Assembly: GCA_963704655.1 (NCBI GenBank)
Contig: OY969927.1
Location: forward strand, 576,001 to 640,000
DNA: 64,000 bases
Direction of reading: 5' to 3'
Origin: an uncultured Candidatus Babeliaceae bacterium
GTDB taxonomy: Bacteria > Babelota > Babeliae > Babelales > Babelaceae
The notes under the pieces are model-generated. The model saw only the letters and a program-made list of their open reading frames with translations, was not told the DNA's origin and ran no database searches. A program made the position numbers and the translations under genes. Positions 10,653-17,831 of the stretch are shown in pieces (position 1 is the stretch's first letter; each line of letters opens with the position of its first letter).

Positions 10653-10892
10653 ATGAACAACACAAAATATATAATAATCGTGCTCTGTTTAATGACAACA
10701 GGGGTTATTTTTCCCATAAGCAAAAAAATGGAAACCTTCAGAAGTAAACTTCCTAGACTTATTATTTATGAATATAAAGATAATTTATATGGGAAATTGC
10801 TTATGGTCGTTAATAAGCAAAAAACTAATAAGCGAATTTATCCAGAAGTAAGTTTTAACTCTTTTGAAGCATTATTAAACAGCTTGGAATAA
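10653..10892 (+). CDS. Small hypothetical exported protein
   Basis: 79 aa with signal-like N-terminus, fills murD-ftsW gap. Confidence 0.5.
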   Translation: MNNTKYIIIVLCLMTTGVIFPISKKMETFRSKLPRLIIYEYKDNLYGKLLMVVNKQKTNKRIYPEVSFNSFEALLNSLE

Positions 10893-10935: not shown

Positions 10936-12042
10936 ATGAAAAGCCATACACGTGTATTATTTATTTTTCTCTTGTGCGTAGCGCTGCTGACCTGCATCGG
11001 CTTTATCTTTATTTATTCCTCAAGTTCTGCATATGCATTAGAACGCTATCAAGACGGTCTTTTCTATGCGAAAAAACAGTTTCTTGGACTTATTTTAGGT
11101 ATAATCGGTGGCCTAATATTATCGATTATCCCCTTAAACTTTCTGAAAAATGCGGCGCCCTATCTGTTTCTGTGTGCACTGTGCGCAACAGCTGCAACAT
11201 TGTTGCCCTATGTCGGCGTATCGATCCATGGCTCACACCGGTGGCTTTCTCTTGCAGGGTTTTCTTTTCAGCCGAGTGAATTTTTAAAAATATTTTTTAT
11301 CTTGTATTGTGCGTACTTTTTAGAAAAGAAACAGTTTTCATTACATGCCATTAAACATTACATGCAACTACTTATTGTCATAAGTATCACAGCGGGGATA
11401 CTGTTATTGCAGCCAGATTTTGGACAGATGGTGACGTTGAGCTTAACAGCAGTTTTATTATTTTTCTTAGCCCAAGTACCGATCATATATTTAGCTATTA
11501 CCGGCATTCCTGTTTTACCAATTCTGGGACTACTTGTTTATCTTAAACCCTATCGTTTCCATAGAATTTTAATTTATCAAAACCCATGGAAAGATCCACA
11601 GGGTGCAGGTTTTCAAATTATACAATCTCTGATTGCTATCGGCTCTGGCGGCTGGACCGGCGTTGGAATTGCACAATCAAAACAGAAATTCTTTTATTTA
11701 CCGATGCACCATACAGATTTTATTTTTTCAATTATTGCCGAAGAGACAGGATTTTTAGGTGTTACATTTTTGATTAGTATTTATTGTATCTTTTTATTTA
11801 CCGGCTTTAAACTTGCATCGTATATGAAGGAACAGTTTTCATTTTTATGCATAGCAGGTATCGTTACCCTGATTACATTACAAACTATTATTAATATCGG
11901 CGTTGCATGCGCATTGCTGCCTACCAAAGGAATCGGGCTGCCCTTTATTAGCTATGGTGCATCATCACTACTTGCACATTTATGCATGATCGGCGTTATT
12001 TGCAATTGCGTAAAAAGCAACCGTTCCCTTCGTATTCATTAA
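10936..12042 (+). CDS. ftsW: SEDS peptidoglycan polymerase FtsW
   Basis: G..RW, FQPSEF.K, QPDFG, GFQIIQSLIAIGSGG, HTDFIF.IIAEE, LPFISYG. Confidence 0.92.
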   Translation: MKSHTRVLFIFLLCVALLTCIGFIFIYSSSSAYALERYQDGLFYAKKQFLGLILGIIGGLILSIIPLNFLKNAAPYLFLCALCATAATLLPYVGVSIHGSHRWLSLAGFSFQPSEFLKIFFILYCAYFLEKKQFSLHAIKHYMQLLIVISITAGILLLQPDFGQMVTLSLTAVLLFFLAQVPIIYLAITGIPVLPILGLLVYLKPYRFHRILIYQNPWKDPQGAGFQIIQSLIAIGSGGWTGVGIAQSKQKFFYLPMHHTDFIFSIIAEETGFLGVTFLISIYCIFLFTGFKLASYMKEQFSFLCIAGIVTLITLQTIINIGVACALLPTKGIGLPFISYGASSLLAHLCMIGVICNCVKSNRSLRIH

Positions 12043-13175
12043 TCAACTTCACTAAATGGTTCATATTGCGCAGAAGGCTCAACTGCTTTAGCGGAAATTA
12101 ATGGTTTTCTATGCTCAACGGGAGAATATCTTCTTAGTGGGCGCGTTAATCTTAATGTTTCAGTAGGCTTAGGGTTTTCTGCCTGCCGGCTTGCACGCTC
12201 AAAAAAGAAAAGATACGACTGAAACCTCTGCCGAAATGCGCCTTGGGGCTCGCCTTGAAGAATGTTGCCTAAGCGCCCTTCATTAATTGGCTCAATATGC
12301 GAATCATTACACAAGTACCACTGATTACCATAACGGCTTACTGCAATATAATGGCCCCCCTTTAAAGAAGATCCAGAATGCAAAACAGCCCCAATTAATG
12401 AATACCAATACTTAGTAGACGAGTCATCTTTTTTAGACAGATAAAATTGATGGGTTAATGACCATATGGGAATCATATGCTTTTCAAGCATCTCATTAAC
12501 TCGAGGTGCTGTTACCACTAAAATCTCTGAAGCCTGGTTAAAATTATTCTCTTCGCTCATAATGAACGAGCCCATTTTTCCAGCAGGGTTTGTGCCTTCA
12601 ACCGTAGCTTTTTTTGATACAGAGAAAAAACTTTTTATTAACGTTTCTATTGCCGTTCCTTGTTCACGTTTTTCTACAGGCACATAATCAAAAGGTATAT
12701 TTAAATGAAATAATCCATACTCTCTATTATCTACTTCAACCCTATCAAAAACTTTTTTATAGGTATACCCTATTTTAAATAAATTTGTTAATGCTGGCTT
12801 TGGATAAAGATGGTCAATAAATTTTATAAAAAATTCTTCTGCATCCTGTTGTCGGCCAACTTCATTAAATATATTTGTATTTACAAGATTCACTAATTCT
12901 GCTGGAGCAATAGAACTTTCAGAAGTAGAACTATACTGCTTAATCAAACTCTGCAATGCTTGCGTAAAATTTTTATCAATCGAATTATCCCCTTCACCTG
13001 GCTCATAAGAAAGAACTGTATCGCGAAAAGATTTAGTCGCAAACAAACATTGCAACGTAGAGTTCAAATAACAGGTATTTCCAAGATTATTAAAACCCTT
13101 AGGCATATTGAGCAGTTCAGATGAATAACTTACCTGAACTGTGCATAATAACATAAAAAATATAATTTTTTTCAT
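12039..13175 (-). CDS. Secreted ubiquitin-specific protease (peptidase C19/USP) deubiquitinase
   Basis: Cys box GFNNLGNTCYLNSTLQCL, QQDAEEF, His box YSLIGAVLHSG...GGHY, WYLCNDS; signal peptide. Confidence 0.9.
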   Translation of the reverse strand: MKKIIFFMLLCTVQVSYSSELLNMPKGFNNLGNTCYLNSTLQCLFATKSFRDTVLSYEPGEGDNSIDKNFTQALQSLIKQYSSTSESSIAPAELVNLVNTNIFNEVGRQQDAEEFFIKFIDHLYPKPALTNLFKIGYTYKKVFDRVEVDNREYGLFHLNIPFDYVPVEKREQGTAIETLIKSFFSVSKKATVEGTNPAGKMGSFIMSEENNFNQASEILVVTAPRVNEMLEKHMIPIWSLTHQFYLSKKDDSSTKYWYSLIGAVLHSGSSLKGGHYIAVSRYGNQWYLCNDSHIEPINEGRLGNILQGEPQGAFRQRFQSYLFFFERASRQAENPKPTETLRLTRPLRRYSPVEHRKPLISAKAVEPSAQYEPFSEVD

Positions 13176-13261
13176 AGCGCCCCCGAATAAAATTTTATTT
13201 ACTATTTATAATTATAACCTGAATAATATTTTTTTAGCTAGAAATAATAAAAAGTGCTCAA

Positions 13262-13293
13262 ATATAAAGGCCCCAAATTTGGGGCCTTTATAT
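13262..13293. terminator. Perfect 32-bp palindrome, probable terminator
   Basis: ATATAAAGGCCCCAAATTTGGGGCCTTTATAT downstream of the 13348 gene. Confidence 0.6.
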
Positions 13294-13347
13294 CTTAAAG
13301 AATCTTATAAATTAAGCTTCTACTGAAGAATCGGTATCTTGCGGAGC

Positions 13348-13761
13348 CTACGGCATAGGACAAACTTCTTGTGGTGCAGCAGCAGCTTCTATTTTTTCTG
13401 CTACTTCAGCAGCATTAACTTGTGCATTTAAAGCTGCCTGAATTTCAAGTTTTCTTGCAAGAGATGCTGATATAATTTTTTCAAAAAAAGATATAAAACT
13501 TCCGCAGACCTTACTGTTTGCTGCCAGATCTTCACATCTTTTCAATGTCCCCTTACGAAGATCTAAGAAAGCTTGTACTTTTTCATCGAGCTCTAAAGGA
13601 TTAGTAATTTGGGCTATCTCTTTTGCTTGCACTTCAGCTTGAGCTCTTATCATTATTTCAACAGCTTCTTCAGGCGTAGCTATATAGATTGTTAATCTTT
13701 CCTGCTCAGAGTAAGCAATGTTCTTAGAAAGTAACAATAAACCTAATAATAATTTTTTCAT
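13348..13761 (-). CDS. Secreted hypothetical protein (paralogue of 13828)
   Basis: MKKLLLGLL signal; C..VCGSFISF motif shared with neighbour. Confidence 0.7.
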   Translation of the reverse strand: MKKLLLGLLLLSKNIAYSEQERLTIYIATPEEAVEIMIRAQAEVQAKEIAQITNPLELDEKVQAFLDLRKGTLKRCEDLAANSKVCGSFISFFEKIISASLARKLEIQAALNAQVNAAEVAEKIEAAAAPQEVCPMP

Positions 13762-13827
13762 AAAAACTTTCTACAATTAAAATGCGTTGTATATAAAAAG
13801 GGGGCACATCTTAGGGCCCTAAAAAAT

Positions 13828-14364
13828 CTATATTAATGTTTCTACTTGAGCAGCTTTTTCAGCAGCAGTCTTTGCAGCTTCAATGGCATCAGCAATAACA
13901 GTTGTATCTACTACAGCTTCTGCTTTTGCTTCTAAATCAACAAAATCAGTTTCTGAAGTGGTCTCAACCGCAGCTACTACTGATTCAGTAACTACAGGCT
14001 CATGTGTTTGAGCTAATGCTGCGCCAAGTTCATTTTTACGTTCTTCTGAAACGGTAATCAATCCTTGTACAAATGCAATAAATTCATCACAAACTGCAGG
14101 AACCCCACTTTGTGTACGACAATTGGCTGAAGCATCCTGCTCTATTAATTTCAACAGAGCAAGTCTTTTTTCATTCACATGTGCGTCACTACTTTTAATC
14201 GCAGATACATATTGTCCATGCAGCGCTTCTAGAGCGTTTTGCACTCCATTTTTCATCGATAAACCCATCAAAACACCAGCGGGGTTAAAAAGTCCAGGAT
14301 TAATCTCAATGTTGCAAAAAACTGAATTTGTAACAAACAATAAACCTAACAATATTTTTTTCAT
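13828..14364 (-). CDS. Secreted hypothetical protein (paralogue of 13348)
   Basis: MKKILLGLL signal; C..VCDEFIAF; Ala/Glu-rich tail. Confidence 0.7.
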   Translation of the reverse strand: MKKILLGLLFVTNSVFCNIEINPGLFNPAGVLMGLSMKNGVQNALEALHGQYVSAIKSSDAHVNEKRLALLKLIEQDASANCRTQSGVPAVCDEFIAFVQGLITVSEERKNELGAALAQTHEPVVTESVVAAVETTSETDFVDLEAKAEAVVDTTVIADAIEAAKTAAEKAAQVETLI

Positions 14365-14402: not shown

Positions 14403-15929
14403 TTATTCAAAATGCATAAGAAAATCGATAAACAGACGTACACCAAAACCGGTTGCCCCAGGACGATAATAACTCATATCAGGAACATTAAACGAAGTAC
14501 CTGCAATATCCAAATGTACCCATGGCGTTTCACCCACAAAATTTTGTAAGAAAAATCCTGCAGTAATTGCACCAGCTTTATATGTTTCATTACCAATGTT
14601 ACACATATCAGCTATATGCGAACGAACAGCACGTTTATAATCTTCATGAAAAGGAAGACGCCATAGGCGGTCGCCTGAACGCTGAGATGCTATTGTAAGT
14701 TTATCTACTATCTCATCATGATTACTCATCATACCCGCAAAGAAAGGTCCTAAAGCCGCGGCACATGAACCAGTAAGCGTTGCGACGTTAATAATCATGT
14801 CTGGCTTATAATGTTTAACGGCATAAGAAAGCGCATCTGCAAGAATTAAACGGCCTTCTGCATCAGTATTTTTAACTTCAGCGGTCATGCCATTATAAAA
14901 CGTTACGATATCACCCGGTTTAACAGCGGTCCCTGAAGGCATATTTTCTGCAATTGGGGTAATGCCGATAACATTAACACGTGGTTTTAAATGTGAAATT
15001 GCTTCCATAGTTGATATAACTGCAGCTGCACCGGCCATGTCATCTTTCATTTCATCCATGCGTGATGCTGGCTTAATACTAATGCCACCTGAGTCAAAAG
15101 TGATGCCCTTACCAGTAAGAACTATAGTTGGAGCATCTTTATGTTCTGTATGGTACTCGATTGCAACAAAACGGCATTCCTGCACAGAGCCTGCTGCAAC
15201 TGCAGCAAGACCGCCCATGCCCATTTTCTTTACTGTCGGCTCATCATAAACGGTTATTTTTAAATTATGAACCTGCGCAATGCGAACTGCATGCTCAGCA
15301 AGAATTTTAGGAGTCAAAACATCTGCTGGCAAATCACACCATTGACGGGCCTGATTTACTGCATGACCGATTCGTTGACCAAATTCTAAGCCAACTGACA
15401 TTTGATCATGTAAAATCTCAGAAGCACAAAGTATTATTTCTATATCGCGCGTTGATTTATTTGCTGGATCAGTAATAAACTGGTCAAAATGATACGCTGC
15501 CATCATGAAAACAGAGACCAACTCTTTAGTTAATTCAAATTCATTGATTCCAAACCAGTGATGATCTGGCATTAAAACTGCTACTCGTGCAGCTTTTACG
15601 CTTTCAGCAGCTCGAATAACTAAACCCGTAGCACGACGTGCGTATTCTAAACGATCAGTAGCAGATTTTTTTTCTGAACCTAATCCAACCAACAGTAGTG
15701 ATACCGGTTTATTGCTACGAATGGCGGCCAAAAGCAGCTGGCTACCTGCAGCCCCAGTAAAATTACGGTTTTTAATGACTTCATGCAAAGGCGCATACAG
15801 CGTTGAAAAATCTTTAAGTAAATTTTCAAGAAGGGTACTCTCTGAAAGAGCATTTTGGGGACAAAAGCCAACATACAAGTCAGCATCATGCCCTACTATA
15901 TGTTGATTTGCCAGTTTAAAGTTAAGCAT
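14403..15929 (-). CDS. pepA: Leucyl aminopeptidase (M17)
   Basis: GKGITFDSGG, MKDDMAG, NTDAEGRL, HLDIAG. Confidence 0.95.
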   Translation of the reverse strand: MLNFKLANQHIVGHDADLYVGFCPQNALSESTLLENLLKDFSTLYAPLHEVIKNRNFTGAAGSQLLLAAIRSNKPVSLLLVGLGSEKKSATDRLEYARRATGLVIRAAESVKAARVAVLMPDHHWFGINEFELTKELVSVFMMAAYHFDQFITDPANKSTRDIEIILCASEILHDQMSVGLEFGQRIGHAVNQARQWCDLPADVLTPKILAEHAVRIAQVHNLKITVYDEPTVKKMGMGGLAAVAAGSVQECRFVAIEYHTEHKDAPTIVLTGKGITFDSGGISIKPASRMDEMKDDMAGAAAVISTMEAISHLKPRVNVIGITPIAENMPSGTAVKPGDIVTFYNGMTAEVKNTDAEGRLILADALSYAVKHYKPDMIINVATLTGSCAAALGPFFAGMMSNHDEIVDKLTIASQRSGDRLWRLPFHEDYKRAVRSHIADMCNIGNETYKAGAITAGFFLQNFVGETPWVHLDIAGTSFNVPDMSYYRPGATGFGVRLFIDFLMHFE

Positions 15930-16086: not shown

Positions 16087-16737
16087 TTAATTAGGTAATC
16101 TTCTAAAACCCATACCGAAACTATAACCGCTGACGGCCATGCCATACCCAAGAGGCGGCTCACCACCCATAACACCATAATACCCTGCGGCATACCACGA
16201 TGGCCTACTAAGCGGGTCTTGATGTGGAGCATTGCACGGGCAATAACGTTCTTTTTTTTGACAACATTGACCATTTTTACAACTACTAAGTGTCTCGCCG
16301 CCTGAATTTTTAATATAAGAAATAAGTTGCTGTTCTGATGGCGATCCTGTTAAATAATCGTAACTTACCACCATGCCATCGATAAAGACAATAAACGTAT
16401 CTGGGCTTTTCAGTGACAAAAAATCTTTAATATTTTTAATGCGATAACGTGATGAATCGATGGTCATAAAATGCACATCTGCTGCGCGAAACTCAGGATA
16501 ACAACTGACATTAAAGAATCTTTTTTTATTACTATGGTAAACAGGCCTGCGCTCAGGGCACTGCTCTGCTTGAGCATGCCGACAGCCGTCATAAATATAT
16601 GCTACGGTAATTTTATGATCAGCGGCTCTATCAAAAAAACGGCCTTGCGTCCGTATCTGTTCTGCATGTAACGCACCATAGACAATCAATAACGCGCATA
16701 CTAATACTATCAAAAAAATATGTAATCTGTATTTCAC
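16087..16737 (-). CDS. Secreted hypothetical protein, possible thioredoxin-like fold with Gly/Tyr-rich tail
   Basis: Signal peptide; VAYIYDGC...FMTID...PDTFIVFIDG pattern; GTG start overlaps upstream stop. Confidence 0.6.
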   Translation of the reverse strand: MKYRLHIFLIVLVCALLIVYGALHAEQIRTQGRFFDRAADHKITVAYIYDGCRHAQAEQCPERRPVYHSNKKRFFNVSCYPEFRAADVHFMTIDSSRYRIKNIKDFLSLKSPDTFIVFIDGMVVSYDYLTGSPSEQQLISYIKNSGGETLSSCKNGQCCQKKERYCPCNAPHQDPLSRPSWYAAGYYGVMGGEPPLGYGMAVSGYSFGMGFRRLPN

Positions 16738-17831
16738 AAAACCTCCTTATGGACAAAGGGATCATCCATATCTTCAACAATTTTTGCAGTAACTTTATTT
16801 TTTAACACATCATCTAAGAAATTCTTTATAAATGAACGAACCTTATGAGTATATTTTTCTGGGTTATAGAAAAACGAATCAAAATGATTGCGCCCACTAG
16901 TAAGCCATAAGCGTTTATAGCCAGGCTTATTAACATAAATAGAACGAACGGCTTCAACAGGCGCTTTATCATCATTTTTGCAAGTAATGAAAAAAGTAGG
17001 AACGGTAACTTTTTTTATCTCTTGAACGGTATTAGACGGCAATATGCAGGTAGCAATATCATGGGTCCCGACATGAGCAACCGTTTTGAGCGCAAGTTTT
17101 ACCATAGCTTGTATTGAAGGGTTGTAGGCATATTTCTTTAATAACCCACGCCCTGGAAGACCATACTGATAACCACCTATTGAAAAAGTAAGCTGCTCAA
17201 TAAGCCTATGAATAACCATTTCTGTTGAATCAAAAGGGCAATCAAGAATAAGAGCAGAGAACATATCCGGGTGTTGAGCTTGCGCTAAAATCGCAGTTAC
17301 CGCACCCATAGAAAATCCATACGCTATAAGAGGCAACCTTGCCAACTCGAGGTTATTTTTAACAAATGCTACAGCACCTTCAAGATCGAGTACTTCATTA
17401 ACACCAAAAGAACTACATTGATCTTCGATATTTTCACCATGAGCTCTAAAATCAAAAACCATAACATTATAATCATAGAATATGCTTCGTAAAAAACTGA
17501 CATCATTTTTATTACACATAAAACCATGACAAATGACTATCGTCGCCCGTGCACCTGGGCGCGTAACCAGAATCCCCTTACGTAAAATCATTTTTTCAGA
17601 ACCACGCGCTTCAGGAACGGTAAAAACAATCTGTTCAACTTTACCGTTATTATGATACTTTTTGAGCTTTGACTGTTTTTTTATGTCATAATCTTCTTTG
17701 TCTTTGCAATCTGGTGATGCTATAGAACGAGTATAAATATTTTTTATATCAAGATAAAAACGCATACCAACGCCAATAAAGATAACTGTTGCACATGTTA
17801 AAAATATCATGAGTAATATTTTTTTATTCAT
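16734..17831 (-). CDS. Alpha/beta hydrolase, N-terminally anchored
   Basis: ICHGF, FDFRAHG, nucleophile GFSMG, D..AP, NH. Confidence 0.88.
   Translation of the reverse strand: MNKKILLMIFLTCATVIFIGVGMRFYLDIKNIYTRSIASPDCKDKEDYDIKKQSKLKKYHNNGKVEQIVFTVPEARGSEKMILRKGILVTRPGARATIVICHGFMCNKNDVSFLRSIFYDYNVMVFDFRAHGENIEDQCSSFGVNEVLDLEGAVAFVKNNLELARLPLIAYGFSMGAVTAILAQAQHPDMFSALILDCPFDSTEMVIHRLIEQLTFSIGGYQYGLPGRGLLKKYAYNPSIQAMVKLALKTVAHVGTHDIATCILPSNTVQEIKKVTVPTFFITCKNDDKAPVEAVRSIYVNKPGYKRLWLTSGRNHFDSFFYNPEKYTHKVRSFIKNFLDDVLKNKVTAKIVEDMDDPFVHKEVL

Follow-up and report, generated by a model that had tools for sequence, protein, structure and literature searches.

A ubiquitin-specific protease with a predicted Sec signal peptide, encoded in a variable slot between ftsW and pepA of a Dependentiae genome: a candidate host-directed deubiquitinase

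The window, a stretch of 64,000 nucleotides (positions 576,001 to 640,000 of contig OY969927.1, assembly GCA_963704655.1), derives from an uncultured Candidatus Babeliaceae bacterium of the phylum Dependentiae (Babelota). It carries a minus-strand gene for a compact protein of 378 amino acids (aa) of the ubiquitin-specific protease (USP) family, peptidase family C19. As judged from its sequence, the protein is apparently a true and catalytically competent C19 enzyme. It is probably a fast-evolving, full-fold deubiquitinase (DUB) that would leave the cell by the general secretory (Sec) pathway and the type II secretion system (T2SS) and would be aimed at host ubiquitin, activity and delivery being proposals that draw on sequence and a structural model. 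The gene and the motifs of its product are located as follows:

12039..13175, minus strand: USP (peptidase C19) gene with ATG start, 378 aa plus stop, from the open reading frame (ORF) listing and PF00443
13119..13175, minus strand: predicted Sec signal peptide, residues 1-19, with n-region MKK, h-region IIFFMLLCTV and c-region QVSYS
13050..13097, minus strand: Cys box GFNNLGNTCYLNSTLQ, residues 27-42, with oxyanion Asn30 and catalytic Cys35 (13071-13073)
12831..12851, minus strand: QQD box QQDAEEF, residues 109-115
12348..12380, minus strand: His box HSGSSLKGGHY, residues 266-276, with catalytic His275 (12351-12353) and aromatic gatekeeper Tyr276
12303..12320, minus strand: WYLCND, residues 286-291, with the third catalytic residue Asp291 (12303-12305)

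Family membership was assigned with Pfam profile PF00443 (UCH). The match reached an E-value of 3.5e-36 and 125.5 bits against a cut-off of 23.9 bits, with residues 27-304 covering profile positions 2-242 of 254. A preliminary description of the gene had named a hidden Markov model match to the UCH/C19 profile as its check, and the score obtained lies far above the cut-off. Searches with phmmer against PDB sequences returned 97 distinct USP chains at E <= 0.01, the best of which was Ubp6/USP14 (2.2e-16). The complete set of C19 motifs claimed in the same description was found at residues 27-42, 109-115, 266-276 and 286-291. Its pattern for the His box, H.G....GHY, fails when taken literally, with five residues instead of four between H.G and GHY, but the box itself is present. 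In an alignment of 77 relatives (A1), N38, Q42 and D111 were invariant, and N30, C35, E114, Y258, G268, G274, H275, Y276, W286 and D291 were each conserved at >=90%. N30 and C35, which lie in the segment GFNNLGNTCY, were invariant in a further alignment (A2), together with N38 and Q42. E114 likely corresponds to the conserved acidic position that in USPs touches Arg72 of ubiquitin; PMC10719079 describes how the Glu conserved in the USP QQD box contributes to ubiquitin contact, and the concept of an aromatic gatekeeper following the catalytic His comes from PMC10643670. Motif positions and conservation taken together place the triad C35/H275/D291, Asn30, Y276 and the acidic residue of the QQD box all in their expected positions.

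The structure was predicted with AlphaFold2 on the alignment of 77 sequences. The model had a mean predicted local distance difference test (pLDDT) of 88.9 and a predicted template modelling score of 0.83, and it was confident over residues 20-334. The signal-peptide region was modelled as a helix of residues 2-18. The remainder of the chain is a tail that does not align between homologues:

12042..12173, minus strand: C-terminal tail, residues 335-378, disordered, non-conserved and rich in Pro, Arg and Lys, with pLDDT 44-56 in the last blocks

Foldseek against the PDB found USP46, USP12, USP18, USP35 and USP14 at E ~1e-21, with template modelling (TM) scores on the target of up to 0.80. In VIA-align, 467 of 989 aligned chains reached Z >= 8. 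USP46 was matched with Z 30.5 and a root mean square deviation of 2.7 A over 283 of 311 residues (model range 22-329), followed by USP12, USP2, USP14, USP35, USP21 and USP18 at Z 28-30; several of these structures are ubiquitin complexes. The model superposes on nearly all of the catalytic domain of USP46, USP12 and USP2 and predicts four long strands at residues 135-155 and 188-214, where the Fingers lie. On this basis, the modelled protein has the whole Fingers-Palm-Thumb fold. Only four cysteines are present (Cys11, 35, 43 and 289), and the mature protein would retain three of them (35, 43 and 289), so that the Fingers lack a Cys4 zinc ribbon. Eukaryotic USP cores (USP46/USP12, USP2, USP14/Ubp6, USP21 and USP35) share the fold and the catalytic motifs at 19-24% identity. 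Unlike them, the window USP has a predicted bacterial signal peptide and neither a Cys4 ribbon nor accessory domains (UBL, DUSP, WD40-partner context).

The preliminary description had also stated that most characterised bacterial DUBs are of the CE clan or OTU type, in agreement with PMC10719079 and PMC13720258. Only four characterised bacterial DUBs of the USP type are named in the latter review, TssM and SnUSP1-3. TssM of Burkholderia pseudomallei/mallei is a USP secreted by a T2SS, a route that is sufficient because Burkholderia lies free in the cytosol (PMC10719079). TssM and the window USP are alike in being bacterial members of the USP family with a Sec/T2SS-type route, which is a prediction for the latter, instead of a type III (T3SS), IV or VI secretion system. 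They differ in architecture: TssM has no Fingers, a 'Littlefinger' loop and an N-terminal immunoglobulin-like domain, whereas the window USP has Fingers in the model and just a predicted signal peptide of 19 residues before the Cys box. It therefore falls outside the TssM-like fingerless class. No TssM chain was among the 50 structural matches listed by VIA-align, which is not a test of relatedness. SnUSP1 and SnUSP2 of Simkania negevensis are active, linkage-promiscuous DUBs (PMC10643670). Like the window USP, SnUSP1-3 are 'more conventional' USPs with canonical active-site and gatekeeper residues, and Simkania is an intracellular organism associated with protists (PMC10643670, PMC13720258). 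In contrast to the compact window USP with its Sec signal, they are large proteins with hydrophobic regions and a presumed T3SS route, and they belong to another phylum.

These enzymes also bear on the choice of substrate. The target of a secreted hydrolase of USP fold could be a different Gly-Gly modifier of the host, such as a NEDD8-like or other ubiquitin-like protein (Ubl), or ester-linked ubiquitin, for example on a bacterial surface glycolipid. SnUSP2 reacts with an ISG15 probe as well, SnUSP3 hardly cleaves chains (PMC10643670) and TssM prefers ester-linked ubiquitin on lipopolysaccharide (PMC13720258). In addition, the ISG15-specific USP18 was among the top structural matches of the model (Z 28.5). 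However, most of the top matches were ubiquitin-specific USPs, E114 and Y276 are kept as in USPs directed at ubiquitin, and the modelled protein has a full Fingers region, unlike TssM. A modifier other than ubiquitin, or an ester linkage, is rather unlikely on balance.

The N-terminus of the window USP fits the layout of a Sec signal peptide by eye and by a simple rule, consistent with the signal peptide that the preliminary description had assigned to the 378-aa protein. Small residues occupy positions -3 and -1 of the putative cleavage site and no lipobox is present. The rule was home-made and used instead of SignalP for all signal-like N-termini reported here; it cannot tell a signal peptide from a membrane anchor. 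With 10-12 residues, the h-region of the window USP is short for an anchor. The public gene call (P0001) starts at Met8 and gives 371 aa. Met1 was preferred as the start because the aligned sequences of 14 close homologues all begin with an N-terminus of the pattern M-[KNRE]-[KR]-hydrophobic and because of a G-rich run 4 nt upstream of the first ATG:

13180..13184, minus strand: GGGGG run, Shine-Dalgarno-like, 4 nt upstream of the USP ATG, from sequence

Within the phylum, 52 distinct USP ORFs were collected, four of which were dropped as cut by contig ends. A signal-like N-terminus was called in 39 of the 48 complete ones, and the Cys box typically started ~30 residues from Met1. Among non-overlapping ORFs of >=150 aa in the window's genome, the background was 425 of 962 (44%). 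By this rule, a signal-like N-terminus is a trait of the Dependentiae USP family and is enriched over the genome background. The window USP agrees with this family in its Dependentiae genome, its compact size and its signal-like N-terminus before the Cys box. For Chromulinavorax, a signal peptide was predicted by Phobius in 44% of coding sequences (PMC6561590).

The genome consists of a single contig of 1,298,077 bp with 38.0% GC and is 96% complete. One gene cluster encodes GspC, two GspD secretins with N0 domains and a PilM-like protein; two GspE-type ATPases and two GspF-type proteins are encoded as well. T2SS substrates carry no sequence signature. The two GspD proteins and the other T2SS genes are in line with published accounts: all TM6 genomes are reported to carry gspD twice (PMC4776705), and in Babela no secretion system other than the T2SS was seen (PMC4378268). 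Searches of the genome for ubiquitin (PF00240), OTU, C48, F-box-like and U-box domains gave no match, but four of the five were silent in controls too, so that absence is not shown; Josephin, UCH (C12), MINDY, VTD and RING were not searched. The lack of a PF00240 match in the genome itself makes a host substrate the simplest reading.

A Sec signal delivers a protein to the periplasm only. The USP could consequently be a protease of the envelope, periplasmic or membrane-anchored, that acts on bacterial substrates and never meets host ubiquitin; about 44% of the ORFs of this genome carry such N-termini, and the passage beyond the outer membrane is a conjectural part of the proposed route. Yet no gene of the ubiquitin family was found in the genome and the neighbours of the USP gene are ftsW, two genes for small secreted proteins and pepA, with no E1/E2-like or Ubl genes among them. 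The cleft has the features of USPs that bind the ubiquitin tail. Moreover, the gene varies between congeners or is missing from them, which is untypical of a housekeeping enzyme with a processing role, and PF00443 was present in many obligate intracellular lineages but in 0/14 free-living controls. A purely envelope-resident function is therefore judged quite unlikely.

The genomic position of the gene was compared among congeners, with loci L089, L090, L091 and L092 also included. The USP gene lies in a slot bounded by two housekeeping genes:

10936..12042, plus strand: ftsW, convergent neighbour, PF01098 E 1.2e-95, with its TAA stop within the TTAA common to the USP stop
13348..14364, minus strand: two paralogous small signal-peptide proteins of 137 and 178 aa in the same variable slot as the USP gene
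14403..15929, minus strand: pepA (M17 leucyl aminopeptidase), conserved far border of the slot, PF00883 E 3.4e-120

The content of the slot differed from genome to genome:

12043-14402, this genome: USP and two small secreted proteins
Congener G001: USP alone, without the two small proteins
Congener G002: ~100 bp, empty
Congener G005: two small signal-peptide proteins, no USP
Congener G004: a 466-aa protein with a Peptidase_S74 (fibre chaperone) domain after ftsW
Congener G003: contig ends

The USP of G001 was 36% identical to the window USP (33% by tblastn). The borders of the slot were far better conserved in that congener, with 80% identity for ftsW and, for pepA, 87% over the part in the locus and 81% over the full length. 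The divergence of the USP (36% versus 80% for ftsW and 81-87% for pepA) is effector-like. Equal border values were obtained for a Candidatus Dependentiae metagenome-assembled genome (MAG; L054), with ftsW 80% and pepA 81% identical to those of the window; L034 gave the same figures, and the two loci may stem from one genome and were counted once. The 36%-identical counterpart was the only one at the DNA level and is saturated for dN/dS.

Relatives were numerous and distant. The exhaustive search yielded 8081 relatives at E <= 0.001 and just 12 at E <= 1e-30. The closest, P0002, comprised 260 aa at 54% identity and stopped early, past the Fingers region, with a short tail of unrelated sequence, which points to a frameshift in this copy, to its decay or to an error of assembly. 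Next in rank were compact signal-peptide proteins with 30-36% identity. The best named relatives among the genome contigs (genome_contigs) came from Dependentiae, Babeliaceae or Babeliales MAGs (33% identity, E 1e-42), and within the window's family of genomes the best USP matches outside the genus were at most ~26-40% identical over parts. The truncation of P0002, the very fast divergence and the presence-absence variation within the genus could be taken as signs that the window USP is itself a decaying relic or a pseudoenzyme. Against this stand its intact frame of 378 codons, the retention of all catalytic and gatekeeper residues and the confident fold prediction over residues 20-334, which leave an inactive relic extremely unlikely.

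The preliminary description had regarded the gene as possibly acquired by horizontal transfer. Recent import from the protist host or a giant virus would fit a family that is overwhelmingly eukaryotic and a slot that is variable within the genus. Giant-virus USPs (Hyperionvirus, Pithovirus, Megaviridae) resemble the window USP as compact domains of protist parasites, and many occur on viral contigs: 241 USP-relative stretches were found in IMG/VR, and fold matches in BFVD had Foldseek E ~1e-20 and TMt up to 0.86. However, the viral stretches were at best 22-33% identical over most of the domain (tblastn), with E no better than 1e-17, and the fold matches had 15-20% identity, whereas the closest relatives were Dependentiae or unnamed compact signal-peptide proteins (54%, 36%). 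The GC content of the gene (35.7%) is near that of the genome (38.0%). Trees were calculated with FastTree only, for 198 and 269 USP domains, and contained many long branches and just three named eukaryote rows, so that they cannot name a donor. In these trees, the window USP fell into a starred set of 24 rows made up of 16 unnamed rows, five Dependentiae under genome handles, two titled Dependentiae and the window USP itself. The set held 0/71 rows from giant-virus contigs, 0/5 chlamydial rows and 0/3 named eukaryote rows. A clade of 20 rows nested within it contained the second USP of this genome and the copies from the same genus, and all its listed members were signal-like directly before the Cys box. 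Dependentiae rows as a whole did not form one clade, the starred branches requiring a minimum of 16 changes.

The phylogeny with protist and giant-virus USPs that the preliminary description had called for thus grouped none of these with the window USP, as far as FastTree and three named eukaryote rows allow. Together with the positional counterpart in the congener and the GC content, this speaks against a recent transfer, and such an import is very unlikely. Slot, identity, GC and tree data instead argue for a lineage-specific family of signal-peptide USPs in Dependentiae, to which the window USP would belong, that diverges rapidly, duplicates and is often gained and lost. An ancient eukaryotic origin of the USP family is plausible.

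The preferred reading, a secreted DUB directed at host ubiquitin, implies the following sequence of events. The USP would be made with a cleavable Sec signal peptide, exported to the periplasm and freed of its signal. From the periplasm, the T2SS encoded in the genome or vesicles of the outer membrane could then carry it out of the cell. In the protist host, the enzyme would remove ubiquitin from host or bacterium-associated conjugates, acting as an isopeptidase or C-terminal hydrolase after Gly-Gly, and ubiquitin-dependent defence or degradation would be blunted as a result. The host-directed effector of the preliminary description is also the most economical account of a USP enzyme with an export signal in a bacterium of obligate intracellular type, and an effector role is considered likely.

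Several observations weigh against this reading. The signal-like N-terminus is weak evidence by itself, as ~44% of the ORFs of this genome have one. The gene is dispensable within the genus, given the empty slot in G002. Genes of the F-box-like and U-box types were not found in the genome by searches that were silent in the controls as well. Published enzymatic, expression or localisation data for Dependentiae USPs were not found in the literature searched. Finally, a T2SS does not cross the host vacuolar membrane. Babela is described as growing in a vacuole (PMC4378268), so that access to cytosolic ubiquitin of the host is not assured. A precedent in favour is Chromulinavorax, which resides in the cytoplasm of its host and releases outer-membrane vesicles while in the food vacuole (PMC6561590).

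USP domains are common in genomes of host-associated bacteria, as the PF00443 surveys and the titled relatives indicate, though few have been characterised. PF00443 was detected in 90 of 261 Dependentiae genomes and in 63 of the 189 with >=90% completeness and <=5% contamination. It occurred in 11 of 21 Dependentiae families, comprising 29/40 genomes of the window's family and 28/35 of another, with 0/16 and 0/14 in two others; the 14 free-living control genomes had none. Up to nine matches were found per Dependentiae genome, the maximum being held by G143. One open frame of 3751 aa in this genome (G143:C17:15571-23664, covered in part by L031) contained at least four separate PF00443 matches and represents a tandem multi-USP giant. 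In the phylum containing a Parachlamydiaceae MAG (Chlamydiota; G261 and 400 more genomes), 271 of the 401 sampled genomes had PF00443. Chlamydial genomes of ~1.0-1.3 Mb were the first listed among the non-matching ones. Titled USP relatives were also present in Amoebophilaceae/Cytophagales, Rickettsiales, Verrucomicrobiota, Poribacteria and Elusimicrobia MAGs. The three characterised Simkania enzymes would thus appear to give far too low an impression of how common USP domains are in environmental chlamydiae. In PMC4209131 (Domman et al. 2014), a study of chlamydial ubiquitin-related families, the terms UCH, USP and deubiquitinase occurred in one reference only and chlamydial USPs were not reported.

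That a USP is unusual in this setting is not supported by these counts. Secreted C19 hydrolases had in addition been annotated in Babela, a member of the same phylum, in 2015 (PMC4378268). The Babela C19 proteins resemble the window USP in phylum, protease family, predicted signal peptide, presumed T2SS route and proposed role towards host ubiquitin. They are known by annotation and are likened here by description; the window USP is a distinct, fast-diverging member. Given this precedent of 2015, the advance from this single gene is modest. A phylum-wide survey of Dependentiae/Babelota USPs or biochemical work on them was not found in the literature searched, and what may be new is how widespread the family is and how fast it turns over in a slot flanked by housekeeping genes.

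In a wider sense, USPs could be the main DUB class of two phyla of protist-associated intracellular bacteria, with the Dependentiae holding an arsenal exported by Sec and T2SS that turns over very fast in slots between housekeeping genes, in an arms race with protist ubiquitin immunity. The odds on this generalisation are about even. The abundance of USPs in Dependentiae and Chlamydiota bears on the age of ubiquitin-based cell-autonomous defence in protists, and also on the means by which bacteria that lack injection systems gain access to ubiquitin of the host. The source organisms of TssM and SnUSP1-3 all infect animal cells or are studied in them. An enzyme of a protist parasite that combines compact size, a soluble-looking character, the full USP fold and a plain Sec signal would be an easy target for biochemistry and structure determination.

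The second USP of the genome comprised 327 aa (G000:C1:1056304-1057005), matched PF00443 with E 8.9e-29 and was signal-like. It adjoins a pair of genes for a nucleotidyltransferase (PF18765/PF01909) and an NTase_sub_bind protein (PF08780) at L002 476-1153 (G000:C1 ~1055.3-1056.0 kb), a pair with the layout of a toxin-antitoxin system of the MNT/HEPN type.

Concerning the local DNA, the USP gene had been described as convergent on ftsW and overlapping its end. The genes are convergent, but the overlap is confined to the TTAA palindrome at 12039-12042, which supplies the TAA stops of both and comprises zero sense codons. On the minus strand, the order upstream of the USP gene is the 137-aa and the 178-aa signal-peptide protein, followed by pepA. 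The two small proteins (13348-13761 and 13828-14364, both minus strand) were 28% identical to each other (E 8e-7) and neither had a Pfam match; they have in common a Cys-containing helical motif and Ala/Glu-rich tails. A hairpin separates the USP gene from the 137-aa gene:

13260..13295, minus strand: strong hairpin, -24.8 kcal/mol, between the 137-aa gene and the USP gene

The hairpin is probably the terminator of the gene upstream, in which case the USP gene would form its own transcription unit. It was not listed by the consensus terminator scan because its T-tail fell below the rule of the scan. The promoter scan returned seven promoter-like sites against 9.2 expected, none of them on the minus strand just upstream of the USP gene. 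A search of sequencing runs gave no RNA run with the organism and seven DNA runs, in which the shares of sampled words were merely 0.06-0.11.

Further ORFs border the region. Between murD and ftsW lies a 79-aa ORF (10653-10892, plus strand) with a signal-like or transmembrane N-terminus and without a Pfam match; the murD-ftsW gap of congener G004 is ~1 kb. Downstream of pepA, the minus strand at 16087-17831 encodes a 216-aa protein without a Pfam match and a 365-aa alpha/beta hydrolase (PF12146/PF12697). Both have a hydrophobic N-terminal segment and are candidates for further exported proteins.

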